Origin: Naegleria gruberi
Lineage: Eukaryota
Direction: 5' to 3' (one strand)
DNA: 64,000 nt
Assembly (NCBI GenBank): GCA_000004985.1
Contig: GG738873.1
Positions 3,124-51,700 of this stretch are shown piece after piece. Each line of letters starts with the position of its first letter. Within the stretch, counting starts at the first letter, position 1. The notes beneath the pieces were generated by a model, which saw only the letters and a program-made list of their open reading frames with translations, ran no database searches and was not told where the DNA came from. A program made the position numbers and the translations under genes.

Positions 3124-3154
3124 ATTAACATATATAAGATCCAAGATTTAAATA

Positions 3155-3502
3155 TTGGCCATTAATAAAATGGTAATGGGTTTTCGCCATACCCAAACCC
3201 AAACCCAAACCCACACACAAGGGATTTGGATCGAGGATTTTCCATCCCTTCACTACATTCTATCTAAGTCATTTTACAAAAAATCATATAGAAAGCTCAG
3301 CAAGTACATTGACACCTATGGAAGAAAGAGAAGAGGATGGAAGAGATTTGGAAAGAAGAGAATTATCAGAAAGAAGATTGATGTTTATGGAAAGAAGAGA
3401 AGATTTAATAAGAGAAGAATTGACACTTACAGAAAGAAGAATAGAAAGAATAGAAGAGGTGACAAGAAGAATAAGAAAGTTGATATTTACAAGCGTAAAT
3501 AA
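3155..3502 (+). pseudogene. 5'-truncated copy of the polycationic secreted repeat-peptide gene (paralog of 29385-29810). N-terminal and signal-peptide coding is replaced by unrelated sequence and telomere-like repeats. An alternative E/R-rich frame (3309-3506) is also open because the DNA is purine-rich
   Basis: C-terminal 75 aa nearly identical to the right-arm ORF ('YGRKRRGWKRFGKKRIIRKKIDVYGKKRRFNKRRIDTYRKKNRKNRRG.KKNKKVDIYKRK'). Homology to the right copy ends near 3283, so the signal peptide present in the right copy is absent here. Confidence 0.45.
3191..3213. repeat. Interstitial telomere-like tract (about 3.5 CCCAAA units followed by cacacaa) at the outer edge of the left inverted-repeat arm
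   Basis: 'acccaaacccaaacccaaaccca' at 3191-3213, same unit as the terminal telomere; lies about 70 bp outside the point where homology to the right arm stops. Confidence 0.75.
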
Positions 3503-16517: not shown

Positions 16518-16733
16518 TATTGTTGTCAGTTGTTGAGTTTGATTTTTTTGATGTTTGGCAGGATGAATTTTTCTTTTTGAAATGTTGTAAAAAAATCAAA
16601 ATTGGTTTTTCGGATTCTATTGGATGATGAAACCATCCCGAGAGCAAGCACTAATTTTGTTAAATATATTATCAATATTTTTGTAAACGCAACATTTATT
16701 AAAAATTATTTAAAAATAAATATTAAAAAAATC

Positions 16734-17906
16734 ATGAAGAGCCAAACTTCCGAATCAACTCCAATCATCACCTTCTCATTCCTATCGACAGAATCCGATC
16801 TGGACAAGTGGCTTGATTTTGTCCACTCGATTTTCCGACCAAAAGCCACGAGAGAATATTTCCTTGCTCATCACCTCAATGATCCCAAGGCAAAAGCTTC
16901 CGATATTGTGATTGCTAAATTAGACAATGAAATTGTGGGTACAGTGAAGGTTTTTCATCGATCCATACAGGTACTTGACTCAACAAATGGAAAACAAGGT
17001 GAAAAAGTAGTAAATAATAATGAAGAAATTAATAATGATGAAGAATTAGAAAAGCCGAGCATCGGAATGTGTTCATGTAAGGGAATTGGAGAGGTTGGTA
17101 CGAGAAGTGATTTTAGAGGAAGGGGCATTGCTTCTTCCTTGTTGAATTTGCAGGTGGACAAGATGAAAAGCAATCATGATAATGATGCAATAATATTATC
17201 ATCATTACATGCCTCCACTGATGCCTCTAAACTGTATGGAAAACTAGGATGGAGTGCCATTCCTTTACATTTCTCAAAATTGAAATTTGCATTGAGTAAG
17301 CCAACATGTTCAGCACAAGTGGGAAATAAGGTGGTGAGAATTGAAGTGACCAATTTCAAGAATGAAAATCTTCATGTATTGTATGAAAATTATTGTAGAT
17401 ATTTTGGATTTTTAGGGGTGGAAATTAGATCGGAGGAGTATTGGAATCGATGGGTTGTTCACGAATCGAAAACCCATCAATGTAATTCGTATGCTCTCTA
17501 CGAAAATGATGAGTTGAAGGCTTATATCATTGTTGGGCCTGATGACAAGAATGAGTGTTTGAAAGTGAAGGAGTTTATTTGTGATTATTCTGAAAACTCT
17601 GAGAAACGTCTGGAATATTTCTTTAAACTGATAGACCATGCTCAATCTGAAACTATTGTGGAATTGTCACAAATTTCGGCTATTCTGCCTCGACCAGTTG
17701 CCAAGTTTGTTTTTAACCTTTCTGGAAAAATAGGACAATCTTTGCAAGGTCTTACTCATGCAGGAATATTGGAAGAATATCAAGAATTTTGGTGGACAGA
17801 TAATGGATACATGTACAACCTTGTGAAGAAACCACACGAAAAAAGTACCTTGACTGATTTAATTGAGGAGGAAAAGCATGTCGTGTGGAAAACTGATGGA
17901 TTTTAA
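16734..17906 (+). CDS. GNAT-family N-acetyltransferase domain protein with a C-terminal extension of about 200 aa
   Basis: ATG at 16734 preceded by 'aaaaaaatc'. The acetyl-CoA-binding motif 'VGTRSDFRGRGIASSLL' fits the GNAT motif A pattern (R/Q)xxGxG/A. Confidence 0.7.
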   Translation: MKSQTSESTPIITFSFLSTESDLDKWLDFVHSIFRPKATREYFLAHHLNDPKAKASDIVIAKLDNEIVGTVKVFHRSIQVLDSTNGKQGEKVVNNNEEINNDEELEKPSIGMCSCKGIGEVGTRSDFRGRGIASSLLNLQVDKMKSNHDNDAIILSSLHASTDASKLYGKLGWSAIPLHFSKLKFALSKPTCSAQVGNKVVRIEVTNFKNENLHVLYENYCRYFGFLGVEIRSEEYWNRWVVHESKTHQCNSYALYENDELKAYIIVGPDDKNECLKVKEFICDYSENSEKRLEYFFKLIDHAQSETIVELSQISAILPRPVAKFVFNLSGKIGQSLQGLTHAGILEEYQEFWWTDNGYMYNLVKKPHEKSTLTDLIEEEKHVVWKTDGF

Positions 17907-17927
17907 ATGAATAATATACAAATTTAT

Positions 17928-20900
17928 TTATACCCAAGTATTATAGCTTACACCTCTTGTTATAAAATCACCAATATCATCTTCTTCTGCATCCATATTA
18001 AAGTCCTCTGTGGTTGTTGTAGGTGTTGAATCAATTGAAGAGTTGGTGTTAATTTTTTCGAATAAATCTTGTAAAGTGCTATCTCTACTTGTGTTATTAT
18101 CGTAAAATACATATTTTCCAACATTATTTTTCTTTTTTCTTCTAATAAAATACCATCCAACACCAGCTACAAGAGTGGCACAAAACGCTACCACCAAGAG
18201 TAAACCAATTGAGCCACCTACAATGTAAGGTAAATAATCAATTTGAGTGAGTGAGAAGTCTGATTTTGCACAAGTGACACAAACTTCCATCATACTACTC
18301 ACAGTTAATTCAGGAATTTGAGAGATGCCAGAAAGTAATTGAGCGCATGAAAAAGCTTGTCCAATTCCAAATTGATATCCAGTTGGTTTGGCAAGAATTT
18401 TGGAATTATCAGAAACAAAATTAAGACTACAATCAATCATATCAAGATTAATATTTTTCAATTCCCATTTCGTTCCCTTCTCTGTTAATTTCATTGAAAT
18501 TCTGTAAGAAACACCTGAACTGAATAAACAAGAGGCGGATGATTTCATTCCACTTGATAATTCACCTCCTGATAAAACTTGTTTTCCATTTTCAAAAGAT
18601 AATCCACCAAAGAATGTTCCATTATTCTTTTTAGAAATCCAAAATTCAATTAAATTACCATTTTCAATATTTGAGAATGGTGATAATTTAAAATCAAGTG
18701 ATACAATATTACTGATATCATGTAAATCTGATGATGCAACAACTTGTCTAATTGGTTTGTCTGTACATTTTGATTTGTTCAATTTACCAATATTCATTTT
18801 AATGATCAAAGGTGGTTGAACTGTTTCAGTTGTTTCTTGTCTTTGAATGATTGGAGGTGTTGTATCTTGATCTGGAATATCTTCTGGAGGTGAAATACTT
18901 GTATCAAATTTATCCAAAGAAGTAACTTTTACAACTTCTGGATCAACATATCTGATAAATAATTTGGTATCATAATTACTCGAAATTGAATCTTGAATCA
19001 AAGCTGCTCTTATATTCATTATGGAATCACTTGTTCCCAATAATGGAAGTTTAGCTGAACAAAATGTTGAATTGAGAACTGTGCATGCAATTTGAGTTTC
19101 TTCAGTGGAATATTGTTGACGAATGAAAAGATTGACATTATTGGTTGGTGGGAAGAATGTTGCCATTGCAAGAATCCTATCACCAAAATAAGCTTGTTTT
19201 GGTAAAACTTTCAATAAATCAAATCTATACAATGTCAATTCGGTATCGGTTGAAATTGGTATTGGATCTGATGTTTCACTAATTAATTCAATTTGAACTG
19301 AAACTTTAAATGAATCCTTCATTACCAAATCTTGGGGAAAGTTGCTTATCAAATCCTTTGCATTAACGAATGGCTTGAATGTAGTTCTTGTTCTACTTCC
19401 TGAGGTTTGAACTGGTAAACGAGCAAGAATCAAATTAAGAGGATCATATTTGAGAATTAAATAAGGTCTTGTTCCTGGTAAAACATAATTTCCTTCCAAA
19501 TAAATTGGAATTGAACCAGTCACTGGAACATATAATGGATAAATCTTTCTAATAGATAAAACTGTTGCCTCACTTTGATCATTATTAATATAAGCAATAG
19601 GTTGGAATTTTGTTAATTGAGTACTTTGATCAAAAACTGATGAATCTGGAGTTAATTGAGAAACTGCAATAATCAAAGATACATCTGTATTCACATTGGT
19701 CACTGTAATCTTTTCAGTATCTTTCGTGAGAACAACCAAATCATTCTTATTAACAACAAAGTTTGAATCTGAGGCTAATTCATTGAATTCTGGACTTGAT
19801 GAATCAATATCTGGAACAATTGTACTGATAGTTGTTGTTTGTTGATCACTCGATAATAAATATTGATCTGGATGATCATATAAAACAAGTGTAAAATATT
19901 TCTGAGTACTTTGAGGAATGACAATTTCTTTTGGGGTTTCATTTGGTGCTTCAATATTAACTGATACCAATAAACTTGAATTTGAAGTTCCTTCTTTGAA
20001 GAAGGTGAATGTTGTTGTATTGGTTGATGGATTGAAAACTTGATTTCCTTTATCAATATCTGTGAATGAAATTGGTCCCTTATCAAAAACTGATGAAATA
20101 TTTGCTTCCTTACTTGATGTATCAATTTCCAAGATTGTAACATTCGTTGAATTATCTTTCAATGTGATACCAAGTAAATCACCATTTGGATTATCAATAA
20201 TTTTGACAAGACCATATGTTGCATTATCCATTGTATTTATAATTGGAATAATCATTTGAGTTGCATTACTGAACTTGTCAATCTTCCAAATAATTAAAGA
20301 ATTTGGAATCTTACTCTTATATAATAAGGTATCAAAAGTTAAAAATTTGTCACCACTTTCAGTATTTACATCTGTTGTAATAGTGTAATATTTCAATAAA
20401 TTACTATTAGTAACATTGGATGGAATACCTTCTAATAAAGTTGTACTTTGTAATATCAAAGATTTACCACAAACAGTATCCATCAACGATTTTTGTAAAT
20501 AAATGTTAGAATCTATCACTGTGATTTGTTCTGCTGGTACAAATGAACCTTTACACAATTCAGTTGTGGTTTGATATTGACATAATTGACCAGTAAATCC
20601 ATCATGACATTTACACAAGTTACCTTCAATACATTTACCATTTCCTCCACAAACACTTGAATTAATTCCAGGTGTACCAAAACAAACTGGAATGGAGCAA
20701 TTCAATCCAATATAATTCTCCAAACATGAACAAGTATCATTTGAAATACAAATTCCATTTCCAAAACATGTTAAATTAGATGTTTGTTCAACACCAAAAC
20801 AGTACGTTTTAGGAATTGATGGAGCTGTTGGATCATTATTTCCAGAATTAGATGTTGGTGTTGTAGTATTAAGAGTTTCGTTTGGAGTAAAATGATTAGA

Positions 20901-23900
20901 ATCAATTGTTGAATTAGATGCGTTACTTGAACTGGTTGAATTGTTAGAACTCTGAGAAGTATTAGATCCATTATTTGAACTGGTTGAATTGATAGAATTA
21001 TTAAATCCATTATTTGATTCAGTAGTATTGTTGGATGAATTTGAGCTATTGTGTGATAATGTAGAATTGTCAGACATTGAAGTAGTACCATTAACTTGAC
21101 TGGAATTATTGCCTGTTGGTGACGAATCGTCAATTGTACTGTTATTAGAATTATTAGAACTATTGGTATTACTATTTGAACTATTGGATACACTTGGATA
21201 TGAGTTATTCATTGAATTAGAGATGGTTGAATTATTAGTTTGTGAAGAAGTATTATTAGAAACTAGAATTGTACTATTTGAACCATAGTTGGTTTCATTG
21301 GTGGAATTAGAAGTATCATAATTGGAAGTTGAGTTATTCAAGACATTGGAGGAAAGATTTGATGAATTCTGAGAAGTGTTGTTACTATTAGTAAATGTTC
21401 CATTACTTGTATTGATAGTAGTAGAATTAGAAGTAATAGTAGAATAGTTTCCATTAGAATTAGTAATATTACTTGTAGAACTATTTGTAGAAATGTTACT
21501 AAAATTCAAAATATTAGATGAATTATTCGATAGCGATTCAGTTGTGGAATTGGATATCACACTTGATTGATTTGAATGACTACTTCCATTATTGATATTA
21601 CTTGTTGAATTAGTTGTGTCAATAATTGAATTATTACCACTACTTGTTGAATTATTTTGATTAATAGTACCATTTATACCATGATTATCAATAGAGGTAA
21701 TGTTTGATGAGTCAGAGTTGTTCAGCAATGAACTGTTACCATGAGAATTAGTTACATTAAATGTTCCATTACTTGAATTATTGACAGTAGAATTAGAGTT
21801 ATTTCCATTCGAATTAGAATTATTGGTAATGTTGGAAGAATAAATAATGGATCCATTTTGAACACTTGTTTGATTCTTGTTGAGAGTTTCATTAAAAACA
21901 TTGGTTGTGTTTGTAGCTCCATTACTTGTTGAATTATTTTGATTAATAGTACTATTTATACCATGATTATTTGTTGAATTGGAATTATAATTCCAGGTAG
22001 TATTATCATTACTTGAATTATTGAGAGTAGAATTAGTGAAATTAGAATAACTATTCGTTGTAGAACTATTGTAAGAAGAATTAATGGTCGAGTTAGACGT
22101 TGCATTATTGTTTGTGGAATTTTGAATCATTGTGTCATTACTCATTGATGTATAGTTATTAATAGTATTGCTACTATTTACATTAATTAGAGAGTTTGTA
22201 GAATTAATTGTTCCGTTTTGAATTGTTGTGGAGTTATGTCCTTCACTTTCTTGATTAGTATTGTTGGTATTAGTACTATTGGAAGAATAAATAATAGACC
22301 CATTTTGAACACTTGTTTGATTCTGGATGATAGTTTCATTAACAACATTGGTTGTGTTTGTAGAATTAACCGTTGCAGAATCAAGTGATGTATTGGACGA
22401 ACCACTTTGATTCTTAATAGTTTCGTTGTAATTACTCGTCTGATTAAGCGTTGAATTTGTTGAACTTTCGCTTGTGTTATTAAGACTTTCTGAACCAGTT
22501 AAATTTGATACCACCTGAGAAGTGTTTAAACCATCAGTTGATGTTTCATTAATACCAATAGTATAGTTTGAATCTTGAGTGCTATTTTTAAAATTGGTAG
22601 AAGAGGTAACATTCATAACTAGAGTTGAATTGAGTCCACTATTTGATGTATCATTTCTATTGTTTGAAATGGAAGTTTGATTACTTGAAACAGTATTATT
22701 ATTTTCAAGAGTTTGATTATTTGTCATGGCAGTGTTATTTGAAACAGTATTATTAGAACCTAATGTATCTACTATTCCTGTACTATTTGTTTCATTTTTT
22801 CCAAAGATTGTTTGGTTATTTGAAATGTTAGTTTGATTATTCAATGAGGTATTGTTTGATGAACTGATAGAGGTATTACCACCTAATTGATCTGTATTAT
22901 TTTGTAAAGTGCTAGAATTAAAGTTAATGGTGCTATTAGAAATGTTACTGCTATTTGATATAATTCCATTCGAAGAATTTGAATTCAAATATGAGGATGA
23001 ATTATTTTCAAGAGTTTGATTGTTTGTGATAGCAGTGTTATTTGAAACAGTAGTTCTGGATTCTCCTGTGCTATTTGTATCATTGTTTCCACTATCAGAG
23101 AAGGTTTCTGTGTTATTGTTTGAAGAAGTGTCATTTGTTGAATCGCTGCTTGTACAATTAGTAGAGCCAGTAGAGGTTCCTGAAAGTGAACTATTTGATG
23201 ATGTTGTGTTTTGAGAGCCCAATGTTGAATTGTTACTTGCTGTATTAGATACTGTCTGATTATTACTTCCTTCAGAATTTTTGTCCACATCATTGCTACC
23301 CTTACTAATGGAGGATTCATTAGTTTTAACTTGATATATAGCATCATCAAAATAGAGTGTTTTAGGGTTTGGCAATAAAACTGTGTTGATCTTTCTTTCA
23401 ACTGGTTCAATTAATTTATCAGAAGGTGTAAGTATACTTGAACCATCAGCTTGTGAAATAACTATAGCATTATCAGTTTGGTAAACTCTTGTAGAATTTT
23501 TTAAACTCATCTTTGTGTTATTATAATACATAGCTAGTTCAGTATCTGAGGAAGTCCCATTAACTACAACTGAATAGAAGAAAGATCCCTCTTCATTAAC
23601 CACTACAACACTTTCATCAAAACCATCAAAGATAAAGAAGTAAGGAATTGCATTTGGGTTATTTGCTATTTTAAATGATGAAACAGTGTTTGAACCTCCA
23701 GTTAATGATAATTTTTGAATGGTTTGAACTTGTGATTTACTCTCTTCGATAATTGGCATGTAAAATTCTAAAACACCATTCTTTCTAAGAAGAGGAGTAC
23801 CATATCTTATTTGCTCTGGTGTAAAGACACCTGGACAGTATGAATATCTAAATGGTACATTAAAGTCATTTGGGAGATAATAATAAACAATCAATTGATT

Positions 23901-26900
23901 TCCATCCAAAACTAACGCATAGAAGTCTTCTCCACTTGAAAGAATTCTCGATGTGGCGTTATTTGTTGGAATAGTGAGAGTCACATTTACAGGAACAGGG
24001 CTTGTGGGGTTTACAATAAATACATTAGGCACTGGTTCATCAATTAAGGAAGTATCAATAGTGATAATAGCCGTATCATTCATTTTCTGGGTTTTCACTA
24101 ACTTATCGAGAAAAGAATCTGTAGTGCCTGGCATTGGTCTAGAAATAGTCAATTCTGTAAGATTTTGTTTCTTGTAAGTGAAATAGTAGCCGCAAACACT
24201 AATTTTTCTTATAGTTAAAGTTAGTAAAAACTTGCTATTATACTTCTTTTCAAGATTGAGAACAAAATCTTCAAACTGACCATCGGGAGTACATATAACA
24301 CTTCCATTAGAACCAGTAGAGTTGGATGATCCATTTGAGTTGTAATATGTTGTTGTGTTGGAACTTTTTGAATTGTCTACGTAACTCGAATTGTTTGTTG
24401 AGTCAAGATGAATAGGTGTGTTGCCACATGTTGTACAATTAGTTATTGTTGTATTGTCATATGTACAATTAGTAGTTGTGTTGTCAAATGTTGTACAATT
24501 AGTAGTATTATCATTGGCAACAGGAGGAATCTTAATAACATATTTTTCACTATCATAAAAATAGTAGGAAGGAGGTGGCAAGTCTGGTGATTTCTTTTCG
24601 TTGGATGATAGATCACTTGGGGAAATAAATAATATTTGGCTAGTTTGAAATGCATAAACAGTAACGAACTCGTTATAGTAAATACCAATGGATATATCTG
24701 TTTGGAATGCGGTAAGTAAATATCTTTCTGTAGCAAATGAAAAATGTTCCCAAGGCCAAGGGATTGTTGCCAATTTACGTACTTCGAAAATCTGAGATAG
24801 AGAGTAGACATTAATGCCCTTTTCACTGTATGTAATTATTCTTTCCTCTGTACCATTAAAAATTGAGAAATATGGTATTATCTGTGGATCATTGGATATT
24901 GTAAAAAAATCCAATTTTTCATCATATTGATTCAAGGATAGAATAAGAATAGTTTGATTTGATCCTTCCTCGATAATTGGCATGTATACATTGATTGTGC
25001 CGTCACTTCGTACTATAGGTTGTCCGTATCTTATTAGGTCTGGAGTGAACAGTGTATTACTAATTGAGGAAGATTTGTATTTCTGCTTATCTGAGTTAAA
25101 TCTTTCTATTAATAGATTGTTGTCATTCAAATTCAATACAAAATACTGAAGACCGTTGCTTAGTAACCTTAATGATCTTGGAGAGTTTGTTGGACCTCCA
25201 GTGGTTAAATAGTTTTGAAGATGTAATTCTTGTAGAGACCAGATTCCTATTGGAGAAATAGATGAAATGTAAAAGACAGGTTGTGTAGATAGGTCATAAC
25301 TTGCCCATGACTGATCAACGGTAACCAATAGTGAGCCTTTGAATACCTGGTATGTAATGAGCTTATCCTTAAATGACTCATAAGAAACAGGATTGTTTTT
25401 AAATTTGGAAAGTCTTTTTTGCTCTGAGCTACTGGTTTTTTTTGAAGAACTGGTAGTAAAATTAATAACAATAGGTTCCATTGTGTAACTAAGGTCAGCC
25501 TCAAAATTTGTTTTAAGCCCAATATAACCACCCAAAAGGACTACTGTTGTATCTATTATCTGACATGAAACACCATAATATGGTGTCTTACATTTACATT
25601 TTTCCGTAATCTCATCACAATAACCATTTCCACTACAAACCAGAGAACTGTTTCCACTAATTCCCCTGCATGTTACCTCGTAGTCACACTTATCGCCTTT
25701 AAAAAACTTATAACAATTGCAGGTATCGTTTTTCGTGCACGAACCATGGCCACTACAAACTGTTGGATCAGCTGATTCTTTCCCAAAACACATTACAATG
25801 GGTTTGTTGAATATTTCTGACGGGGTGGAATATTTTGGAGAGTATTTCAAACCACCTAATGATCCAATAAATTGCCACAAAAACCCATCCTTGAAATTTC
25901 TTCCAATAGAAGCACTTTGAACTACTTTGTCAACAGTTGCGTTGGCTGAAAGAGTTATATTAGTGGATAAATAGCCTTGGTAGCTATAAACACGAGTCTC
26001 GAAAGTGTCAGTACCGTCCATATTTTGGTTTCTAGTAATCGTTACTTGATATGTACTGTTGACTTTAAGGTTTGGATCCAAAACCATACTTTTTCCTTCT
26101 GCAATAGGTGACAAATCCACAACCAAAAACTTTTCTGAGCTAATGAAAACTTTGAATCGGTTTACATAATCAAAAAGGGTCATAGCAGATTCAAGTGACA
26201 ACGGAGAAAAGTAGAAATTGAATGTAAACTCACCACTAAGTAGCAAGTAAATATTTGGATCCGTAATTGAGCAATACGAGTCTTCAGAAAGGGAAACAGA
26301 GAAGTCATTATCAAGGCCAGGAGTGAGCTTTACATTTTCACAAGGAAAAGAAGCACCAGTAAGTTTGTCAACCAGATACAACTTAACTGGCTCTCCCTTA
26401 TAAGAATCGCTTGCTGAAGAAGGTACGCTAAAATATGAGCTGTGAGCTGGAACTCCGTAATAAATGGCTTGCCCTATTCGAAATGATTCAGATTGGCAGC
26501 TTACATCGTTGAAAAAATCAATAATATTAGAACAAAAAGGACCATCATGCAAGTAACTGTACATAAGTAGAGTCTCCTTAGTATAATCTAATTTGTTGTC
26601 TAACATATCGTAACAATAACCGTCCTGTTTCATATTACAAAAATTACCCACTCTAGATCTTGTCGAGGTTGGTTTACATTCACTATCTGGTGAATCGCCA
26701 GTGTTTTCACATTGGCAAACATCTTGATCAGTACAAGTTCCTTTTCCGCTACACACTCCAGGCTCATCAGCAAAAATACCAAAACATGATTTTTGAGAGC
26801 TAGTCTGTAAAATAAGTGACAACTTTTCAATTTGAACATGTGGCTCTATGACAAACATGCTTGAGTTACTAATGAAATTTACAAACGAATCCAAAGAGGA

Positions 26901-27473
26901 GAATGAATTAATACGAGAATTAATGTATCCATTAAGATTCAAATACACGCTGTTCTGATAAATAGTTACTTCCAAATAATTATTAAAACTACCAGAGACG
27001 GACTCGATGGATATCCACTCATTACCATTAAATAAACTCAGGACAATTTTGAAATTGGCCATATCAATTTTTAAAACTGGATTTGATAAAACTGAACAAT
27101 CTCCATCTGAGGTTGTAAAGTTCAATGCAAAAGTCTCTGCCTTAATAATGTTCAACATGTCAATATTTGATGATATTACAATTCCTCCATTACTCGCAGT
27201 ATCATTTCTTAGATATTTACTTTCAACATTTCCATTATTATAGTTCAATCTGTTCCATATCCAAGACTGAACATCCAAATCAAATTTGTAATATATGTTT
27301 CCAGTAGAAGCGCCTTCAACAACACTCAAATTTCCCAATAACATTAAGGCTTGTAAACAGCACAATGTCATAATGATCAGCAGCAAACCACCATTCCTAT
27401 TCGCATGCCAACGCGATGAAGAGTTAATTTCATCTCCTCGCATTGTTGAAACATGCAACTGTTGGCTTTTCAT
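17928..27473 (-). CDS. Giant type I membrane glycoprotein, about 3180 aa and apparently intronless. It has a signal peptide, scattered EGF-like Cys modules, an internally duplicated domain of about 110 aa, an Asn/Ser/Thr sequon-saturated region of about 900 aa, and one TM helix. Its short cytoplasmic tail is conserved with the giant gene at 48788-64000
   Basis: First ATG at 27473 ('MKSQQLHVSTMRGDEINSSSRWHANRNGGLLLIIMTLCCLQALMLLGNLSVVEGA'). EGF-like 'CFGVEQTSNLTCFGNGICISNDTCSCLENYIGLNCSIPVCFG...'. TM 'IVGGSIGLLLVVAFCATLVAGVGWYFI'. Tail 'RRKKKNNVGKYVFYDNN...LQDLFEKINT...TTTT..DAEEDDIGDFITRGVSYNTWV'. Confidence 0.8.
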   Translation of the reverse strand: MKSQQLHVSTMRGDEINSSSRWHANRNGGLLLIIMTLCCLQALMLLGNLSVVEGASTGNIYYKFDLDVQSWIWNRLNYNNGNVESKYLRNDTASNGGIVISSNIDMLNIIKAETFALNFTTSDGDCSVLSNPVLKIDMANFKIVLSLFNGNEWISIESVSGSFNNYLEVTIYQNSVYLNLNGYINSRINSFSSLDSFVNFISNSSMFVIEPHVQIEKLSLILQTSSQKSCFGIFADEPGVCSGKGTCTDQDVCQCENTGDSPDSECKPTSTRSRVGNFCNMKQDGYCYDMLDNKLDYTKETLLMYSYLHDGPFCSNIIDFFNDVSCQSESFRIGQAIYYGVPAHSSYFSVPSSASDSYKGEPVKLYLVDKLTGASFPCENVKLTPGLDNDFSVSLSEDSYCSITDPNIYLLLSGEFTFNFYFSPLSLESAMTLFDYVNRFKVFISSEKFLVVDLSPIAEGKSMVLDPNLKVNSTYQVTITRNQNMDGTDTFETRVYSYQGYLSTNITLSANATVDKVVQSASIGRNFKDGFLWQFIGSLGGLKYSPKYSTPSEIFNKPIVMCFGKESADPTVCSGHGSCTKNDTCNCYKFFKGDKCDYEVTCRGISGNSSLVCSGNGYCDEITEKCKCKTPYYGVSCQIIDTTVVLLGGYIGLKTNFEADLSYTMEPIVINFTTSSSKKTSSSEQKRLSKFKNNPVSYESFKDKLITYQVFKGSLLVTVDQSWASYDLSTQPVFYISSISPIGIWSLQELHLQNYLTTGGPTNSPRSLRLLSNGLQYFVLNLNDNNLLIERFNSDKQKYKSSSISNTLFTPDLIRYGQPIVRSDGTINVYMPIIEEGSNQTILILSLNQYDEKLDFFTISNDPQIIPYFSIFNGTEERIITYSEKGINVYSLSQIFEVRKLATIPWPWEHFSFATERYLLTAFQTDISIGIYYNEFVTVYAFQTSQILFISPSDLSSNEKKSPDLPPPSYYFYDSEKYVIKIPPVANDNTTNCTTFDNTTTNCTYDNTTITNCTTCGNTPIHLDSTNNSSYVDNSKSSNTTTYYNSNGSSNSTGSNGSVICTPDGQFEDFVLNLEKKYNSKFLLTLTIRKISVCGYYFTYKKQNLTELTISRPMPGTTDSFLDKLVKTQKMNDTAIITIDTSLIDEPVPNVFIVNPTSPVPVNVTLTIPTNNATSRILSSGEDFYALVLDGNQLIVYYYLPNDFNVPFRYSYCPGVFTPEQIRYGTPLLRKNGVLEFYMPIIEESKSQVQTIQKLSLTGGSNTVSSFKIANNPNAIPYFFIFDGFDESVVVVNEEGSFFYSVVVNGTSSDTELAMYYNNTKMSLKNSTRVYQTDNAIVISQADGSSILTPSDKLIEPVERKINTVLLPNPKTLYFDDAIYQVKTNESSISKGSNDVDKNSEGSNNQTVSNTASNNSTLGSQNTTSSNSSLSGTSTGSTNCTSSDSTNDTSSNNNTETFSDSGNNDTNSTGESRTTVSNNTAITNNQTLENNSSSYLNSNSSNGIISNSSNISNSTINFNSSTLQNNTDQLGGNTSISSSNNTSLNNQTNISNNQTIFGKNETNSTGIVDTLGSNNTVSNNTAMTNNQTLENNNTVSSNQTSISNNRNDTSNSGLNSTLVMNVTSSTNFKNSTQDSNYTIGINETSTDGLNTSQVVSNLTGSESLNNTSESSTNSTLNQTSNYNETIKNQSGSSNTSLDSATVNSTNTTNVVNETIIQNQTSVQNGSIIYSSNSTNTNNTNQESEGHNSTTIQNGTINSTNSLINVNSSNTINNYTSMSNDTMIQNSTNNNATSNSTINSSYNSSTTNSYSNFTNSTLNNSSNDNTTWNYNSNSTNNHGINSTINQNNSTSNGATNTTNVFNETLNKNQTSVQNGSIIYSSNITNNSNSNGNNSNSTVNNSSNGTFNVTNSHGNSSLLNNSDSSNITSIDNHGINGTINQNNSTSSGNNSIIDTTNSTSNINNGSSHSNQSSVISNSTTESLSNNSSNILNFSNISTNSSTSNITNSNGNYSTITSNSTTINTSNGTFTNSNNTSQNSSNLSSNVLNNSTSNYDTSNSTNETNYGSNSTILVSNNTSSQTNNSTISNSMNNSYPSVSNSSNSNTNSSNNSNNSTIDDSSPTGNNSSQVNGTTSMSDNSTLSHNSSNSSNNTTESNNGFNNSINSTSSNNGSNTSQSSNNSTSSSNASNSTIDSNHFTPNETLNTTTPTSNSGNNDPTAPSIPKTYCFGVEQTSNLTCFGNGICISNDTCSCLENYIGLNCSIPVCFGTPGINSSVCGGNGKCIEGNLCKCHDGFTGQLCQYQTTTELCKGSFVPAEQITVIDSNIYLQKSLMDTVCGKSLILQSTTLLEGIPSNVTNSNLLKYYTITTDVNTESGDKFLTFDTLLYKSKIPNSLIIWKIDKFSNATQMIIPIINTMDNATYGLVKIIDNPNGDLLGITLKDNSTNVTILEIDTSSKEANISSVFDKGPISFTDIDKGNQVFNPSTNTTTFTFFKEGTSNSSLLVSVNIEAPNETPKEIVIPQSTQKYFTLVLYDHPDQYLLSSDQQTTTISTIVPDIDSSSPEFNELASDSNFVVNKNDLVVLTKDTEKITVTNVNTDVSLIIAVSQLTPDSSVFDQSTQLTKFQPIAYINNDQSEATVLSIRKIYPLYVPVTGSIPIYLEGNYVLPGTRPYLILKYDPLNLILARLPVQTSGSRTRTTFKPFVNAKDLISNFPQDLVMKDSFKVSVQIELISETSDPIPISTDTELTLYRFDLLKVLPKQAYFGDRILAMATFFPPTNNVNLFIRQQYSTEETQIACTVLNSTFCSAKLPLLGTSDSIMNIRAALIQDSISSNYDTKLFIRYVDPEVVKVTSLDKFDTSISPPEDIPDQDTTPPIIQRQETTETVQPPLIIKMNIGKLNKSKCTDKPIRQVVASSDLHDISNIVSLDFKLSPFSNIENGNLIEFWISKKNNGTFFGGLSFENGKQVLSGGELSSGMKSSASCLFSSGVSYRISMKLTEKGTKWELKNINLDMIDCSLNFVSDNSKILAKPTGYQFGIGQAFSCAQLLSGISQIPELTVSSMMEVCVTCAKSDFSLTQIDYLPYIVGGSIGLLLVVAFCATLVAGVGWYFIRRKKKNNVGKYVFYDNNTSRDSTLQDLFEKINTNSSIDSTPTTTTEDFNMDAEEDDIGDFITRGVSYNTWV
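20800..23300. repeat. Low-complexity coding DNA inside gene 17928-27473, encoding about 850 aa of near-continuous N-x-S/T sequons (Asn about 30%, Ser about 30%, Thr about 15%) with internal imperfect tandem repeats
   Basis: The translated segment 'NSTNNNATSNSTINSSYNSSTTNSYSNFTNSTLNNSSNDNTTWNYNSNSTNN...' shows recurring units such as 'NQTSVQNGSIIYSSN(I/S)TN'. Confidence 0.8.
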
Positions 27474-28961
27474 CTTGTGGCGCGACAACGGTTTATCTAC
27501 AGTTGAAGTGTTGGTTGTTCTTTTCTGTATAGTTTGTTATGAGAATTTTTTAAAAGGTGATATTGATTTTTTGGGTTGATATTTGGGTCTCTGTTCAGAC
27601 ATGTTTGAGCGCACTAAGGTGATGGATCACCGAGATCTGGAAAGATACTAAGCGCGAGCCTTATCATGCGTGGATTTTGGTGTGAGGCTCAACAAACTCT
27701 TTCAATTGCTGCATTGTTGTGAATGGTCTAGAATGATAACGTCCACTTCAAAAAAGGTCTATTCATTACAGTGATTACCGTAAATTGAGACACAAATCCT
27801 CACGCAACAACTGTTGCACATCAGCTAATAGCAGCAATACATTTTGATTCAATGGAGAATATTTAAAATTATGATGAATTTGATTTGATCCGAGGGATCA
27901 CGTTGCAGTTTCTCAATTTTTTCATCTAATAATATTTCCATGTGAATACTTTCAATGATGATTTTGTTGATGATCTTTAATCCTATTGTTGCTCTCTTAA
28001 GTCAGCTCATTCAATGAAATTAATGCTCATCTAGATAGATTATTACAATTTTTTCATCTTTAATTCTTTACATCAAAATATTTGACGATTTTTTGATATG
28101 GAAAGAAAAGTGATGAGTGAAATTTGATGATTTTAAAAAAATATTTTAACAAGAAAAATTTCATCAAATTCGCAACATGTTTCATCATGGATGATTTTCA
28201 AAGGCAATTCTTCATCACTTCCAAAACCATTTTCAACACAACATGATACGATCATTTGGAATGTATAGAAATTAATTTTATTAAATTTCAACATGAATTT
28301 CAAATTTTAAAAGGCAATGATTAAATTGATGGCGAGTCTTGTTCAATTGGAGAGGTAAAATTCACTTTATTGAATGATAATCATCAGAAATATAACAAGT
28401 AAATGGATGCCATTCTTTTACTTGAAATAGAATTTCATCAATTTATTAATTTTAATATTTTCATCATGAAAAACATCAGACAAGACAATAAGAAGACGAT
28501 GGGCATGTTCTAAATGTTCATTAACATCACCTCAGAAAGTTTCAAAACTTTCCATCAAGCACATGTAGAGTTGGAGAAGATAAAGTAAAATTTAATTTCA
28601 TCAAAGTGAAAAACACTTTTTGGTAAACCTGTTCAATTTCAAGAGGAGGCACAAGATTTGTTATTGTACCACATCATAAAGAATGTTTTGCCAATGTTTT
28701 TCGATTATTTTCCAGAGATGATAAAGTTGAATTTTCACATGCTTCCAAACATTATTCATTCATTATTTACTTGATAAATCTTCATCAGGACAATAATAAA
28801 TACATCACTTGGATGTTATCTAACATTACTATTCATCTCATTGTTTCACTCCAAAAGTTTTCCAAGATATCCAACAATCCTCCCAACAAGAATATTTTAC
28901 CATCATATTTCCAGCAAAGAGTTGTATGAATTTGATTTGTCTTTCACATTTTGATAAGAAT

Positions 28962-29080
28962 GGCTACGGCCATATCACGATGAATGCACCTCATCCCGTC
29001 CGATTTGAGAAGTTAAGCACCGTCGAGCCACATCAGTACTGAGGTTGGAGACAACTTGGGAACCTGTGGTGCTGTAGTCT
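28962..29080 (+). rRNA. 5S ribosomal RNA gene (about 119 nt), apparently intact
   Basis: 'GGCTACGGCCATATCACGATGAATGCACCTCATCCCGTCCGATTTGAGAAGTTAAGCACCGTCGAGCCACATCAGTACTGAGGTTGGAGACAACTTGGGAACCTGTGGTGCTGTAGTC'. Helix I pairs 5' GGCUACGGC with 3' GCUGUAGUC. The conserved 3' half 'GGTTGGAGACAAC..GGGAAC...GGTGCTGTA' closely resembles Dictyostelium 5S. Confidence 0.9.
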
Positions 29081-29085
29081 TTTTT
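29080..29085 (+). terminator. Pol III terminator T-run immediately 3' of the 5S gene
   Basis: 'tttttt' directly after '...gctgtagtc'. Confidence 0.7.
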
Positions 29086-29384
29086 GAAATCTTTCTCTTC
29101 TAAATAGATCAAATTCAAAGGAGATAAACAGATGGTCAGGTTGCAATCTTTTCTAAACAATAACTTACTGAACCAACAATCAATAGATTAGTTGCCTTCA
29201 CTGTTCATACAGTCGCCATATTCCTGGCAGGCTTCCCGTCCAATTAAAAGCTTAGTTTAAGCAGAAATAGAGAGAAACTCTCTAACCCTTAAAACCACAA
29301 AAAAGCAACTAAATAATGTTAAATTTAAAAGCAAAATTGATTTAAAAATTTATTCTTTTTAAGGAAATTTGATTTGTTTTTCAA

Positions 29385-29810
29385 TTATTTACGCTTGTAG
29401 ATATCAACTTTCTTATTCTTTCCACCTCGTCTATTCTTTCTATTTTTCTTTCTATAAGTATCAATTCTTCTCTTATTAAATCTTCTCTTCTTTCCATAAA
29501 CATCAATCTTCTTTCTAATAATTCTCTTCTTTCCAAATCTCTTCCATCCTCTTCTCTTTCTTCCATAGGTGTACTTGTTGAGCTTTCTATTGTTCTTTCT
29601 CTTCTTTAATCTGTATTTCTTGAGATTTCTCTTCTTGTTATTATTCTTTCTAATGTACAAGGAAAGTGTTGAGGCAGCAGTTGTTGCTTCTTCTGCAGAA
29701 ACTCCTGAAGTGAAGGAAAGTGCAAGAATGGCCAAAGTCAAGGCAATCAACAAGATTGAAATGAATCTTTTCATTGTTTTTTTGAGTGTTTTGTTCAAGA
29801 AGTGAAACAT
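29385..29810 (-). CDS. Secreted, extremely basic (Lys/Arg-rich) tandem-repeat peptide of about 130-141 aa. It has a signal peptide followed by four or more repeats of about 11 residues of the form x-D-x-Y-(G/R)-(R/K)-K-(R/N)-R. The real start is probably the second ATG at 29774
   Basis: 'MKRFISILLIALTLAILALSFTSGVSAEEATTAAS...YRLKKRKNNRKLNKYTYGRKRRGWKRFGKKRIIRKKIDVYGKKRRFNKRRIDTYRKKNRKNRRGGKNKKVDIYKRK'. The reading frame and most of the sequence are conserved in the diverged left-arm copy. An overlapping E/R-rich frame (29381-29566) lacks a signal peptide. Confidence 0.5.
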   Translation of the reverse strand: MFHFLNKTLKKTMKRFISILLIALTLAILALSFTSGVSAEEATTAASTLSLYIRKNNNKKRNLKKYRLKKRKNNRKLNKYTYGRKRRGWKRFGKKRIIRKKIDVYGKKRRFNKRRIDTYRKKNRKNRRGGKNKKVDIYKRK

Positions 29811-30464: not shown

Positions 30465-30545
30465 TGCAGAAGGTGGGATTTGAACCCACGAAGCTTGCGC
30501 AGTAGAACTTGAGTCTACCCCCTTTGACCACTCGGGAACCCCTGC
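30465..30545 (-). tRNA. tRNA-Leu (anticodon CAA) with a long variable arm
   Basis: Minus-strand sequence 'GCAGGGGTTCCCGAGTGGTCAAAGGGGGTAGACTCAAGTTCTACTGCGCAAGCTTCGTGGGTTCAAATCCCACCTTCTGCA'. Acceptor stem GCAGGGG/CTTCTGC, anticodon stem GTAGA/TCTAC with loop CT-CAA-GT, T-arm GTGGG-TTCAAAT-CCCAC, and a variable arm of about 12 nt. Confidence 0.85.
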
Positions 30546-41294: not shown

Positions 41295-42833
41295 ATGAAG
41301 CCTCTCTCGGATCAAGACTTGCTTCTCTACTTTACTAAATTCAAAAAAGAAATTAAACCAAGGGATCATACCTATCTATTCACAAGTTATGCTAATTGCT
41401 TCTCAGGGAAGGAGGCTGTTAAAACATTGACTTCTCTCTTTAATAATCTTTCAATGGAGGATGCTATTCAATTAGGAAATCAAATGATTGAGAGGAAATT
41501 GTTTATTCACGTAACACACGAATCTTCACAATTACTCAACAAACGATACGAGTTTTACAGATTTACCAACTTTAGGAGATGTTCAAAGAGATTGAGTATT
41601 ATGAACGTTACACAATTCACATCGAGTCTTGATGCTTCCTATCAGAAAGTTATTCAAGATGAATATAATAACAAGGGACGAGTTGGAGACATTAGAATAT
41701 TATTGGATGATGTTTACTTGTCGAGTCAAAACAATAATCAAACTGCCACCGGTGGTGCCATCAGTACTGCGAATGCAGTCACTTCGAATAGTGCAGTCCT
41801 ATCTCGTTCAAGCTCATTCTTTTCCTCAGCTTGCGTTCAATCCTTTTTAAATGATGATATTGCATTGGTCAACAACCAAACCAATGAGACGGATACTTCA
41901 TCACCAGACCAACAGCAAAATGCCAGTTCAATATCCTTATTTGGAAAGAAAATATCTGTACCTCTAAAGATTAGAAAGAATTCACAACCTTCCCACCAAA
42001 ATTCTCCACCAATGAGTGGTTCCTTTGATAATCCAAACCTTTTGAAAAAATCTCCAAGAGGAAACAATAGCCCATTCACTGGATTCAGTTCTGAGCTGTC
42101 TCCACACCACAAATCATCTAGTGCTGAGGATTTATACGGAAGAAAAGTGAGACTAAATGAGTATGTTGATGTTAACTCCCTTGGAGTTGGGTCACCACTC
42201 AAATCTATAGCAACATCTTCTGCTGATGATTCGAGTCCTCTTCAAGACACTCCCTCTCCTCAAAATGAGAGTAGCGTTGTTTCCTCCTCTCCTAGACGTC
42301 ATGGTATGATAGCCCGAACAACTTCACAAGATTTTGAATTGAAACGTAACTTGGAAGATATGGATTTGGATTTTGACAAGTTTGCAAATATTGATGAGGT
42401 TTTAAAGCATCCAAAAGCTTGTGCCATTCTCACCAAATTTGCATTTGATGAATATGCAGAGGAATCAATTTACTTTTGGAAAGATTTGAAAGCCTACAAG
42501 AAGGAATCGAGAATTGATTGTAAATTAGATATGGCTATCAAAATTTTCGATACCTATGTGAATCCAGATGGTAGCTTGGCTCTTAATATTACAAAAAAAC
42601 AAATAGTTGAGTGTAGGAGAAAGTATCTCAATGCTGATGATGATTGTTTCGATGATATTCAAAAGGAAGTCAAGATTATTTTGAATGATCTCCTTGACCG
42701 TCTTCGTTTGGGTATTCAACAACAAAAAACCAATCAAATTAACATGCTAAACAGCAAGAGCTCTCTTATTCCCTCATCAACTTCCAATTTGAAAATGTCT
42801 AGATCTGATGAAAGTATAGCCTTTGTCCAATAA
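41295..42833 (+). CDS. DEP-domain plus RGS-domain protein (regulator of G-protein signalling), 512 aa, single exon
   Basis: N-terminal DEP-like 'FSGKEAVKTLTSLF...EDAIQLGNQMIERKLFIHVTHESSQLLNKRYEFYRF'. C-terminal RGS 'FANIDEVLKHPKACAILTKFAFDEYAEESIYFWKDLKAYKK...DMAIKIFDTYVNPDGSLALNI'. Confidence 0.75.
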   Translation: MKPLSDQDLLLYFTKFKKEIKPRDHTYLFTSYANCFSGKEAVKTLTSLFNNLSMEDAIQLGNQMIERKLFIHVTHESSQLLNKRYEFYRFTNFRRCSKRLSIMNVTQFTSSLDASYQKVIQDEYNNKGRVGDIRILLDDVYLSSQNNNQTATGGAISTANAVTSNSAVLSRSSSFFSSACVQSFLNDDIALVNNQTNETDTSSPDQQQNASSISLFGKKISVPLKIRKNSQPSHQNSPPMSGSFDNPNLLKKSPRGNNSPFTGFSSELSPHHKSSSAEDLYGRKVRLNEYVDVNSLGVGSPLKSIATSSADDSSPLQDTPSPQNESSVVSSSPRRHGMIARTTSQDFELKRNLEDMDLDFDKFANIDEVLKHPKACAILTKFAFDEYAEESIYFWKDLKAYKKESRIDCKLDMAIKIFDTYVNPDGSLALNITKKQIVECRRKYLNADDDCFDDIQKEVKIILNDLLDRLRLGIQQQKTNQINMLNSKSSLIPSSTSNLKMSRSDESIAFVQ

Positions 42834-48787: not shown

Positions 48788-51700
48788 TTAATTCCATACA
48801 GCATAACTATTAACCATAACATTAGGATCTGCATCATCATCATCAAATTCTGGCATAACATTTGTTGTTGTTGCTGTAGATGAGGACATTTGATCATCAG
48901 AAGAATTCATCTTATCAAACAAGTCATTCATTGCATCTTGTAAATCATCTCTGTTGTGGGCATAATCATAAACAGAATACTTGCTACTTCTCATCTTCTT
49001 TCTTCTGTAATACCAAATACCAGCAACAACGAATACCAATACTGTAACTATTAAAATAATTGCAACTGCACCAGAAATTGCTCCAGCAAGAATGGTTGTA
49101 ATATTGGAGGATTCCATGTTAGGTAATAAAGTGGCATGGGCAACACACTTTTGAACTTTACAAGCAGCCACAATATTGTACAAATCTGTTTCAATGTTAA
49201 TGGTTGGCTTATTTAGAATTTGAGTACAAGTTACACTACTTTCCAACCTTAATGTGTAATTATGAGAGAACTTTTCAATAAATTGAGGGTAAGTGATTGG
49301 GAGAATAAAAGAGTTAGAATTACAAATGGCATCTCCATTGCTGTCCTTGATTGTGTAAGAGAGAGTGGCTTTCCAATCCTTATAATCTTGAGAGGACCAT
49401 TCAGAATAATCTAATTGAGAGAAACTGTGTGTAACCTTCATATCTAACTTCATATTTTCACCTTCTTTAAAGTCACAACGAGTAGATATATTTTTGGTTT
49501 CAAATGAATGTACCCAAGTTACTTCAGAATAAAGANNNNNNNNNNNNNNNNNNNNNNNNNNNNNNNNNNNNNNNNNNNNNNNNNNNNNNNNNNNNNNNNN
49601 NNNNNNNNNNNNNNNNNNNNNNNNNNNNNNNNNNNNNNNNNNNNNNNNNNNNNNNNNNNNNNNNNNNNNNNNNNNNNNNNNNNNNNNNNNNNNNNNNNNN
49701 NNNNNNNNNNNNNNNNNNNNNNNNNNNNNNNNNNNNNNNNNNNNNNNNNNNNNNNNNNNNNNNNNNNNNNNNNNNNNNNNNNNNNNNNNNNNNNNNNNNN
49801 NNNNNNNNNNNNNNNNNNNNNNNNNNNNNNNNNNNNNNNNNNNNNNNNNNNNNNNNNNNNNNNNNNNNNNNNNNNNNNNNNNNNNNNNNNNNNNNNNNNN
49901 NNNNNNNNNNNNNNNNNNNNNNNNNNNNNNNNNNNNNNNNNNNNNNNNNNNNNNNNNNNNNNNNNNNNNNNNNNNNNNNNNNNNNNNNNNNNNNNNNNNN
50001 NNNNNNNNNNNNNNNNNNNNNNNNNNNNNNNNNNNNNNNNNNNNNNNNNNNNNNNNNNNNNNNNNNNNNNNNNNNNNNNNNNNNNNNNNNNNNNNNNNNN
50101 NNNNNNNNNNNNNNNNNNNNNNNNNNNNNNNNNNNNNNNNNNNNNNNNNNNNNNNNNNNNNNNNNNNNNNNNNNNNNNNNNNNNNNNNNNNNNNNNNNNN
50201 NNNNNNNNNNNNNNNNNNNNNNNNNNNNNNNNNNNNNNNNNNNNNNNNNNNNNNNNNNNNNNNNNNNNNNNNNNNNNNNNNNNNNNNNNNNNNNNNNNNN
50301 NNNNNNNNNNNNNNNNNNNNNNNNNNNNNNNNNNNNNNNNNNNNNNNNNNNNNNNNNNNNNNNNNNNNNNNNNNNNNNNNNNNNNNNNNNNNNNNNNNNN
50401 NNNNNNNNNNNNNNNNNNNNNNNNNNNNNNNNNNNNNNNNNNNNNNNNNNNNNNNNNNNNNNNNNNNNNNNNNNNNNNNNNNNNNNNNNNNNNNNNNNNN
50501 NNNNNNNNNNNNNNNNNNNNNNNNNNNNNNNNNNNNNNNNNNNNNNNNNNNNNNNNNNNNNNNNNNNNNNNNNNNNNNNNNNNNNNNNNNNNNNNNNNNN
50601 NNNNNNNNNNNNNNNNNNNNNNNNNNNNNNNNNNNNNNNNNNNNNNNNNNNNNNNNNNNNNNNNNNNNNNNNNNNNNNNNNNNNNNNNNNNNNNNNNNNN
50701 NNNNNNNNNNNNNNNNNNNNNNNNNNNNNNNNNNNNNNNNNNNNNNNNNNNNNNNNNNNNNNNNNNNNNNNNNNNNNNNNNNNNNNNNNNNNNNNNNNNN
50801 NNNNNNNNNNNNNNNNNNNNNNNNNNNNNNNNNNNNNNNNNNNNNNNNNNNNNNNNNNNNNNNNNNNNNNNNNNNNNNNNNNNNNNNNNNNNNNNNNNNN
50901 NNNNNNNNNNNNNNNNNNNNNNNNNNNNNNNNNNNNNNNNNNNNNNNNNNNNNNNNNNNNNNNNNNNNNNNNNNNNNNNNNNNNNNNNNNNNNNNNNNNN
51001 NNNNNNNNNNNNNNNNNNNNNNNNNNNNNNNNNNNNNNNNNNNNNNNNNNNNNNNNNNNNNNNNNNNNNNNNNNNNNNNNNNNNNNNNNNNNNNNNNNNN
51101 NNNNNNNNNNNNNNNNNNNNNNNNNNNNNNNNNNNNNNNNNNNNNNNNNNNNNNNNNTTTCTTTTGGTAAATCCAATGTTTGATGCAGTCTTCTTGATTA
51201 CATTCAACTTGATGAATGTATTCTTAACTGTATTCACAAGGTAAATAATATCGTCAACTTTAACAATACTGATCTTGTCAGAGTATTCGGAAAATTGAGA
51301 AATACTTGATGGGTAATTAGCAATTTGTTCAAACTTCATAGAATCTGTCCATAGATTGGTTTTGGAATCTTGTTGAGTAACATTTGCAATAAAGATCTTT
51401 GTTCCTTGATCAGTAATGGTGGCAATCAATATCTTGATACCTGAGGCTTCAGTAGCAGAGATTAGCGCTCTAGCGTTAGAAACTGCGTCCTTGTTTGGGA
51501 ATTCAACAGTTGATATGATTCTAACTCTAGCATCGAAGAAAATAAGGGTTGGTGTTAAGGTATATCTATTACTAGCTGTAAAGACAATTGAAGTAGTATT
51601 ATCAACAACAATATTCAAATCCTTAACTGTTTCTCTGTTGAATGTATGATTGTACAATCGTTTGTTGTCGTATAGGGTTGTCTTGATAATACTGTTTCCT

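Follow-up and report, generated by a model that had tools for sequence, protein, structure and literature searches.

A predicted 348-kDa type I glycoprotein of Naegleria gruberi with a long sequon-rich Asn/Ser/Thr tract

A 64,000-nucleotide stretch of contig GG738873.1 of Naegleria gruberi (hereafter the window) carries on its minus strand an open reading frame (ORF) for a predicted polypeptide of 348 kDa. The product combines the topology signals of a type I membrane protein with epidermal growth factor (EGF)-like modules, an internal duplication and a long tract in which N-glycosylation sequons (N-x-S/T, x not Pro) exceed the number expected from composition. A giant paralog lies in the same window. 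On balance we think it probable, from these features, that the protein is a lineage-specific type I glycoprotein, a surface receptor or adhesin raised on a stalk that is a brush of N-glycans.

The gene and the layout of its product

Read from the first ATG, the ORF has the terminal stop codon as its sole stop and contains no N; the same frame stays open as far as an upstream TTG (17928..27488). At the base composition of the ORF a stop is expected about once in 13 codons, and 3,187 open codons would arise by chance with a probability of about 1e-108. The other five frames across the ORF hold 150 to 434 stops each. The public entry (EFC43497.1 / XP_002676241.1 / D2VHY4 / NAEGRDRAFT_68488) is 3,171 amino acids (aa) long and identical to the ORF from Met11 (27443); the annotated start is thus 10 codons downstream of the first ATG. 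Since the ORF matches the annotated frame, the public gene model is likewise one uninterrupted exon. An earlier sequence-only reading of this DNA had proposed a single uninterrupted ORF, and this is borne out by the lack of any internal stop or assembly gap and by the single-exon public model. Judged by its open frame, the locus is a real, intron-less N. gruberi gene. Residues are numbered from the first ATG, the first base of residue r lying at window coordinate 27473-3(r-1); the features are collected in Table 1.

Databases already list the gene product, under the entry XP_002676241.1 and with no name other than 'predicted' or 'uncharacterized' protein. Literature searches with the gene identifiers returned no paper naming the gene, and those for N-glycans or mucin-like glycoproteins of Naegleria gave no specific result. 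In the literature searched we did not find a description of the sequon tract with its selection signature, of its recurrence in the paralog or of the orphan duplicated domain (DomX).

Table 1. Features of the glycoprotein gene and of the neighbouring paralog
Feature	Residues	Window coordinates	Strand	Basis or remark
Complete coding sequence with stop codon		17928..27473	(-)	3,181 aa from first ATG; N. gruberi NAEGRDRAFT_68488 / XP_002676241.1
N-terminal hydrophobic segment, likely signal peptide	29-52	27318..27389	(-)	Hydropathy scan
Domain A, beta-rich, N-terminal	57-228	26790..27305	(-)	AlphaFold2 (AF2) confidence score pLDDT 30-42
EGF module 1, six Cys	230-266	26676..26786	(-)	Pfam and cysteine map
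Cys-rich linker and domain B (core ~378-545), LamG-like	279-556	25806..26639	(-)	Paralog-module similarity, AF2
EGF modules 2 and 3	562-637	25563..25790	(-)	Pfam, cysteine map; AF2 pLDDT 65-80
DomX copy 1, orphan beta-rich domain	685-981	24531..25421	(-)	BLASTP, MAFFT, AF2
Short sequon tract NST-1, with 10-aa 'DNTTTNCT(Y/F)' repeat	985-1065	24279..24521	(-)	12 sequons against 6.1±1.7 expected
DomX copy 2	1105-1383	23325..24161	(-)	28-34% identity to copy 1
Long Asn/Ser/Thr tract NST-2, proposed N-glycan brush stalk	1401-2210	20844..23273	(-)	145 sequons: 85 NxT and 60 NxS
EGF modules 4 and 5	2225-2298	20580..20801	(-)	Pfam, tblastn, cysteine map
Post-EGF region	2309-2650	19524..20549	(-)	First part similar to paralog post-EGF region
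Membrane-proximal remainder of ectodomain	2651-3083	18225..19523	(-)	Last ~50 residues align with paralog juxtamembrane segment
Transmembrane helix	3084-3110	18144..18224	(-)	Hydropathy scan
Cytoplasmic tail, 71 aa	3111-3181	17931..18143	(-)	Motifs in common with paralog
Neighbouring giant paralog		48788..63894	(-)	Interrupted by assembly gap 49536-51157; gene may begin beyond the listed ORF
Paralog sequon tract, 'NFTNSNFTSDNITIGNYTYTN...'	~1275-1450 (of paralog)	~59545-60072	(-)	Quasi-periodic N-[FILY]-T units

The hydropathy scan finds just two hydrophobic segments, one close to each end of the chain. By the -3/-1 rule, signal cleavage would fall after VEG54. The second segment is followed by RRKKK and the 71-aa tail, which gives a type I layout, and the ~780 residues between EGF5 and the transmembrane helix (2309-3083) are beta-rich. 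EGF is the only kind of family that Pfam recognises in the protein, with scores above the gathering cut-offs for both EGF_Teneurin (45.9 bits; cut-off 24.3) and EGF_2 (44.2 bits; cut-off 22.1). The cysteine map places six cysteines within about 35 residues in each of five modules (230-266, 562-596, 602-637, 2225-2259 and 2264-2298). With the two hydrophobic segments and these scores, the proposal of a genuine type I membrane protein with EGF modules is upheld. Domain A gave no match in Pfam or in PDB sequence searches.

The duplication pairs residues ~685-981 with ~1105-1383 (28% identity by BLASTP, pairwise E=6e-27; 34% by MAFFT), and each copy is next followed by a sequon-rich tract. It had been recognised from the letters as a duplicated domain of about 110 aa; the duplication stands, its length being ~290 aa instead. 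An exhaustive HMMER search of 1.84 billion 50%-identity representatives with a two-copy DomX profile matched the protein itself alone, a search in which relatives more than 50% identical would sit hidden within its own cluster. Without detectable relatives, DomX gives no clue to function. Four-strand groups in DomX had raised the idea of a beta-propeller, which is unsupported: profile-profile comparison gave no similarity to the LamG-like modules described below and no internal repeat in DomX.

Residues 57-985 were modelled with AF2 from an alignment of the paralog modules and DomX-2. The core of DomX-1 (residues 767-891) is predicted with pLDDT 84-89 as eleven strands and one short helix, and domain B with pLDDT 54-70 as thirteen strands.

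Sequon tracts in the glycoprotein and its paralog

NST-2 contains 217 Asn, 203 Ser and 134 Thr in 810 aa (26.8%, 25% and 16.5%), Asn being the commonest residue. Overall 76% of the tract is N, S, T, G or Q, 16% is hydrophobic, 5% charged and 0.5% Pro, apparently the composition of a non-globular region. Its sequon density is 17.9 per 100 aa. The sequence-only reading had described an extreme Asn/Ser/Thr region of ~900 aa at 20800-23300; the region is there, at a length of 810 aa. That reading had a sequon start at almost every third residue, about twice the real density of one per 5.6 residues. Spacings run from 1 to 12 residues with a median of 6, the widest sequon-free gap is 12 residues, and 49.5% of all residues lie in sequon triplets.

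A sequon density scan confirmed the excess. Composition-preserving shuffles (n=2,000) gave 89.6±6.1 sequons with a maximum of 109, against the 145 observed (z=9.0). Two thirds of the Asn residues (67%) lie within a sequon. The reverse motif [ST]xN, present 101 times, is not enriched. The signal sits at position +2 of Asn, where Thr is enriched 2.38-fold (85 observed) and Ser 1.11-fold; no other offset exceeds 1.3-fold. Ile and Leu are both ~1.9-fold at +3. Ten pooled non-secreted ORFs of the window served as a control for mutational bias and held 46 sequons against 43.6±5.9 expected (z=0.4; Thr at +2, 1.22-fold). Counted between the signal segment and the transmembrane helix, there are 192 sequons in total. 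The ectodomain thus has both the sequons and the excess over composition, with an NxT-specific signature, that are expected in the sequence of an N-glycoprotein. In proven glycoproteins of seven model eukaryotes the observed/expected ratio is 1.6-2.0 for NXT and 0.7-1.3 for NXS (PMC3613688, which cites Cui et al. 2009 on positive selection for sequons), and the values for Thr and Ser in NST-2 match these ratios. HIV gp120 has been described as under strong selection for sequons (PMC2920574). In a presence table for the N-glycosylation pathway, taken without its column headers, N. gruberi is scored positive in most columns (PMC4973528).

At the DNA level, all six Ser and all four Thr codons are in use in NST-2, and Tandem Repeats Finder (TRF) reports only short arrays of at most 3.1 copies. 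These diverse codons and the lack of a simple DNA repeat make mis-assembled low-complexity sequence an unlikely origin of the tract. The longest internal DNA duplicates are 96 nt at 91%, 69 nt at 84% and 52 nt at 96% identity; some recent growth by unequal exchange is visible in these sequences.

The neighbouring paralog, also a giant type I protein, contains eight mutually homologous LamG-like modules of ~220 aa (independent E-value, iE, 1e-47 to 1e-85), each followed by EGF modules. It has a long EGF array (several dozen EGF-type modules, not individually counted; PF25024 multi-EGF match of 349 bits) and no DomX. Parts of the two proteins are similar. Residues 457-638 of the glycoprotein, a span that includes EGF modules, match 63564-63001 (tblastn, E=3.5e-12), and the profile of the paralog modules matches residues 410-543 (iE=0.022), which relates these modules to domain B. 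Residues 2236-2422 match 52308-51772 (tblastn, E=3.8e-14); this span includes EGF4-5 and ends at 2422, and beyond it there are only MAFFT pair alignments at 27-30% identity that carry no significance test. The juxtamembrane segment, transmembrane helix and tail are 26% identical over 164 aa (E=1e-12). Both tails have an RRKK stop-transfer sequence, KYxxYD, DLFxKxN, an acidic cluster and SYxxW one residue from the C-terminus.

The paralog also has a sequon tract of its own (176 aa), with 31 sequons against 14.2±2.7 expected (z=6.3) and Thr 3.3-fold at +2; all are NxT, none is NxS, and the middle residue is mostly hydrophobic (NFT/NIT/NLT/NYT). Its ectodomain as a whole is sequon-enriched (z=8.5). 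Because this tract is independent of NST-2, sequon saturation is a recurring, independently composed feature of the family, and its recurrence argues for function.

Relatives outside the window were not recovered. Word-seeded homolog searches with residues 1-1400 and 2310-3181 gave no match; they also missed the protein's own database entry, and are weak negatives for proteins that are very long or rich in low complexity. An exact look-up gave no record for the ORF, whether begun at the first ATG or at Met11, nor for its LigB neighbour, and two metagenome scans and one viral-contig scan showed no relatives. In the PDB, sequence searches gave nothing meaningful, whether made with the profiles of DomX and of the paralog modules or with the N-terminal 502 aa or C-terminal 787 aa.

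Surroundings of the gene in the window

The window is compact and AT-rich, with coding sequence at ~30-37% GC and runs of N at 986-3123 and 49536-51157. Domains in neighbouring ORFs are RCC1, BTB, DEP+RGS, GNAT, LigB and Ntox11. A GNAT-family gene (16602..17906, plus) converges with the glycoprotein gene, and as only 21 bp separate the two stop codons (17906-17928), the 3' untranslated regions must overlap or be extremely short. On the other side, an ORF-poor region of 5 kb upstream of the glycoprotein gene contains a tRNA-Leu(CAA) at 30465-30545 (minus). An inverted duplicate of ~1-1.7 kb (3288-4983 and 27957-29590; 1,025 bp at 95.5% and 275 bp at 91% identity) has one copy 0.5-2 kb upstream of the gene start and could be a repeated element or a segmental duplication. 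A small ORF is found in both copies (3155..3502, plus; 29385..29810, minus) with a very basic, KR-rich C-terminus, '...KKIDVYGKKRRFNKRRIDTYRKKNRKNRRG...', and in one copy a signal-like N-terminus.

The same teneurin-type EGFs recur in small ORFs at 9492-10376 and 32286-32903 (plus), of which the second adds a transmembrane helix and a tail that is basic and rich in Ser. These ORFs may be additional small members of the family or belong to larger genes as exons. ORFs at 14360-15340 (minus) and 11690-12082 (plus) begin in signal-like fashion and contain a stretch resembling a coiled coil as well as a 'VYCDMSKGGW' / 'VYCNMNDGGWT' motif. Pfam gave no match for either, and their PDB hits, sub-threshold at E~0.1, are all but one fibrinogen-related (FGL1, fibrinogen beta, ANGPTL4, tenascin-R, FIBCD1). 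These two ORFs may carry fibrinogen-like domains in a heterolobosean. Three further ORFs (5355-6959, minus; 7144-8595 and 8677-9225, plus) combine a hydrophobic N-terminus and a coiled-coil-like region with an RCC1-like beta-propeller (Pfam RCC1/WD40_RLD). If these proteins are secreted, it would be an unusual context for RCC1 repeats.

The DEP-RGS ORF (41295..42833) is 100% identical to an N. gruberi 'predicted protein' and 54% identical to a Willaertia magna protein. The perfect match marks the window as nuclear DNA of N. gruberi. On this ground a giant-virus origin, entertained in view of the tRNA-Leu, RCC1 and BTB genes and of the compactness of the genome, was rejected, and likewise a dictyostelid one. 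The Ntox11 (PF15521) homolog is split over ORFs 43262-44092 and 44376-45053 (plus), the second part matching at E=7.5e-78, and is presumably divided by an intron at ~44093-44375. The DEP-RGS/Ntox11 neighbourhood is seen again on a 7.3-kb Joint Genome Institute (JGI) metagenome contig, where DEP-RGS is 75% identical and which is probably from another Naegleria species. Around these DEP-RGS homologs, the W. magna locus is not syntenic and the JGI contig ends short of the glycoprotein gene.

Interpretation and alternatives

The features above suggest how the protein could work. The N-terminal signal would route the chain into the endoplasmic reticulum, where oligosaccharyltransferase (OST) would modify a large share of the 192 ectodomain sequons. 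N-glycans at a spacing of ~6 residues would turn the polar NST-2 into an extended, hydrated and protease-resistant 'bottle-brush'; the 810 residues thus probably form a sugar-coated stalk. At 2.5 Å per residue, as in mucins, an extended stalk could reach ~200 nm. With assumed masses for Man5-9GlcNAc2, filling all 192 sequons would add 237-362 kDa of glycan to the polypeptide. The stalk would keep a head of ~1,350 residues off the membrane, the head comprising at least one putative ConA-like/LamG-type jelly roll, three EGFs and two DomX copies. The anchor block would consist of two EGFs, the beta-rich residues before the membrane, one transmembrane helix and the 71-residue tail, whose motifs conserved in the paralog presumably link the protein to sorting or cytoskeletal machinery. 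From these signals we infer occupied sequons, an extended chain, a surface location and a binding function. The likely role is contact or recognition (of substrate, prey or other cells) and/or building of a glycocalyx; for adhesion and recognition we draw only on the domain types (EGF, predicted ConA-like/LamG-type fold) and on the layout of head, stalk and anchor.

Several points weigh against this picture. Expression, glycan occupancy and localisation are predictions from sequence. The N-terminal hydrophobic stretch is long and preceded by an n-region of 28 residues, and could for this reason be an uncleaved signal anchor. Not all sequons of NST-2 would be usable, since 17 pairs are adjacent and overlap; 128 sequons are at least 3 residues apart. 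Orthologs in which conservation of the tract could be tested were not found in the word-seeded searches or metagenome scans. The AF2 model of residues 57-985 is weak as a whole (mean pLDDT 47.9), and that of the C-terminal ectodomain was unusable (mean pLDDT 31.6) and was discarded. A fold search with the head model returned ConA-like/LamG-type hits for which the search does not report the aligned query region; either domain B or the DomX core could be their source. We assign the hits tentatively to domain B, and take the model to suggest no more than that one or more jelly rolls of the ConA-like superfamily are present in the head. Pfam Laminin_G does not match the glycoprotein even at E<=1 or the paralog at E<=0.01, a profile search of the PDB based on the module alignment gave no relevant match, and membership of the LG family fails at the sequence level.

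The high Ser and Thr content is a further such point, since at 42% of NST-2 these residues mean that O-glycans could dominate. NST-2 would then be mainly a mucin-type or mixed N-/O-glycan domain in which N-glycans are minor, a reading we regard as unlikely, if the least so of the alternatives considered here. Ser/Thr-rich stalks of membrane mucins and fungal adhesins carry O-glycans. The glycoprotein has, like the tethered mucins and stalked adhesins (MUC1, CD43, yeast Msb2/Hkr1, Flo/Als), a head, a low-complexity stalk with predicted glycosylation and a membrane anchor, and its stalk is also compositionally extreme and internally duplicated. The stalks of those proteins consist of Pro/Thr/Ser tandem repeats with O-glycans, whereas NST-2, with 41.6% Ser+Thr, has just 0.5% Pro, shows no variable-number tandem repeat organisation and is richest in Asn, most of it in sequons; its selection signal is specific to NxT. 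'Mucin-like', as first applied to this region, does not hold in the strict sense. The accompanying proposal of a stalk built from N-glycans rather than O-glycans gains from the NxT-specific excess and loses from the Ser/Thr content, which leaves room for O-glycans. To our knowledge, O-glycosylation in Naegleria is essentially uncharacterised. A residence in phagosomes or lysosomes instead of the plasma membrane, where the N-glycan coat would line and shield the membrane of a digestive compartment in this bacterivorous amoeba and the C-terminal Tyr motif would be the sorting signal, also seems rather doubtful to us. LAMP-1/2, themselves type I proteins, are densely N-glycosylated and bear a GYxxΦ lysosomal signal at the C-terminus, and the SYxxW motif and acidic cluster are conserved in both paralogs; SYxxW is, however, not a canonical YxxΦ-COOH, and an ectodomain that exceeds 3,000 aa and has EGFs, a predicted jelly-roll fold and duplicated domains is closer to adhesion receptors than to LAMPs. 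The predicted use of many N-glycans per chain as a physical shield is shared with LAMP-1/2 and the HIV-1 Env glycan shield. In those proteins the sites number roughly 5 per 100 aa and lie on folded domains, against the 17.9 sequons per 100 aa over the 810 apparently non-globular residues of NST-2.

Two readings dispense with glycosylation as the reason for the tract. Were NST-2 neutral low-complexity sequence, generated by AT-biased mutation and replication slippage, its sequons would be a mere by-product of composition. The AT-rich genome, the lower GC of NST-2 (29%, against 33% for the rest of the gene), the AT-rich codons of Asn, Ser, Thr and Ile and the few recent internal duplications all fit. 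Such a process is nevertheless hard to reconcile with shuffles that never attain the observed count, an excess limited to Thr at +2 of Asn, a reverse motif that lags well behind the sequon, control ORFs without excess and a second, independent tract with the same signature in the paralog; we consider it very improbable. Least probable of all in our view is a regular beta-solenoid or Asn-ladder rod in which N-x-T is a structural repeat and not a glycosylation site. The quasi-periodic paralog tract, with its hydrophobic middle residues, and the Ile and Leu preference at +3 of Asn in NST-2 would suit a solenoid, but NST-2 lacks a regular period, its sequon spacings are scattered and its hydrophobic content is low.

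Turning to the remainder of the predicted N-glycan-stalked protein, the alternation of predicted ConA-like/LamG-type jelly rolls with EGFs recalls the LamG/LNS-EGF cassette proteins of animals (neurexins, laminin alpha LG, agrin, Crumbs, Gas6), from which it differs in the absence of Laminin_G and PDB sequence matches, noted above, and in the moderate confidence of the model. Its EGFs match PF23106 EGF_Teneurin best. Teneurins are type II proteins with NHL, YD-shell and Tox-GHH regions, in contrast to the type I signals found here and to the Pfam result, which has EGF families and no NHL, YD-shell or Tox-GHH. The closest comparison is the paralog, which shares the teneurin-type EGFs, the LamG-like modules homologous to domain B, an NxT-saturated tract, the start of the post-EGF region, the juxtamembrane segment and the tail motifs; it differs in having eight LamG-like modules and dozens of EGFs, in lacking DomX and in its shorter tract (~175 aa) without NxS. 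A relation to DGF-1 of T. cruzi, another giant surface family of Discoba, was rejected on the literature, a DGF-1 study having reported no significant matches in N. gruberi (bioRxiv 10.64898/2026.07.27.741050). DGF-1 has right-handed beta-helix 'rib' modules as well as hat and multi-transmembrane domains; the glycoprotein has a single transmembrane helix.

We put forward one wider proposal as a tentative idea: the mucin domain may have a counterpart in heteroloboseans that evolved to carry N-glycans, in which long, non-repetitive, NxT-saturated tracts were selected as OST acceptors, independently in the paralogs, and form bottle-brush stalks or dense high-mannose arrays that serve as ligand or bait. 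Mannose-binding bacterial fimbriae could be one target of such bait, if the arrays are real. With most of the ~130-145 sites of NST-2 occupied, few known natural polypeptides would be as densely N-glycosylated as this one. Glycosylation of NST-2 would also mean that the stalk and glycocalyx job usual for O-glycan mucin domains can be built from N-glycans, and would make the tract an extreme case in nature for studying how processively OST works when sequons lie close together. The two proteins point to a family of giant surface proteins, specific to this lineage, that combine EGF modules with predicted jelly rolls. The pathogen N. fowleri belongs to the same genus, and members of this family are candidates for substrate adhesion, prey recognition or glycocalyx formation.

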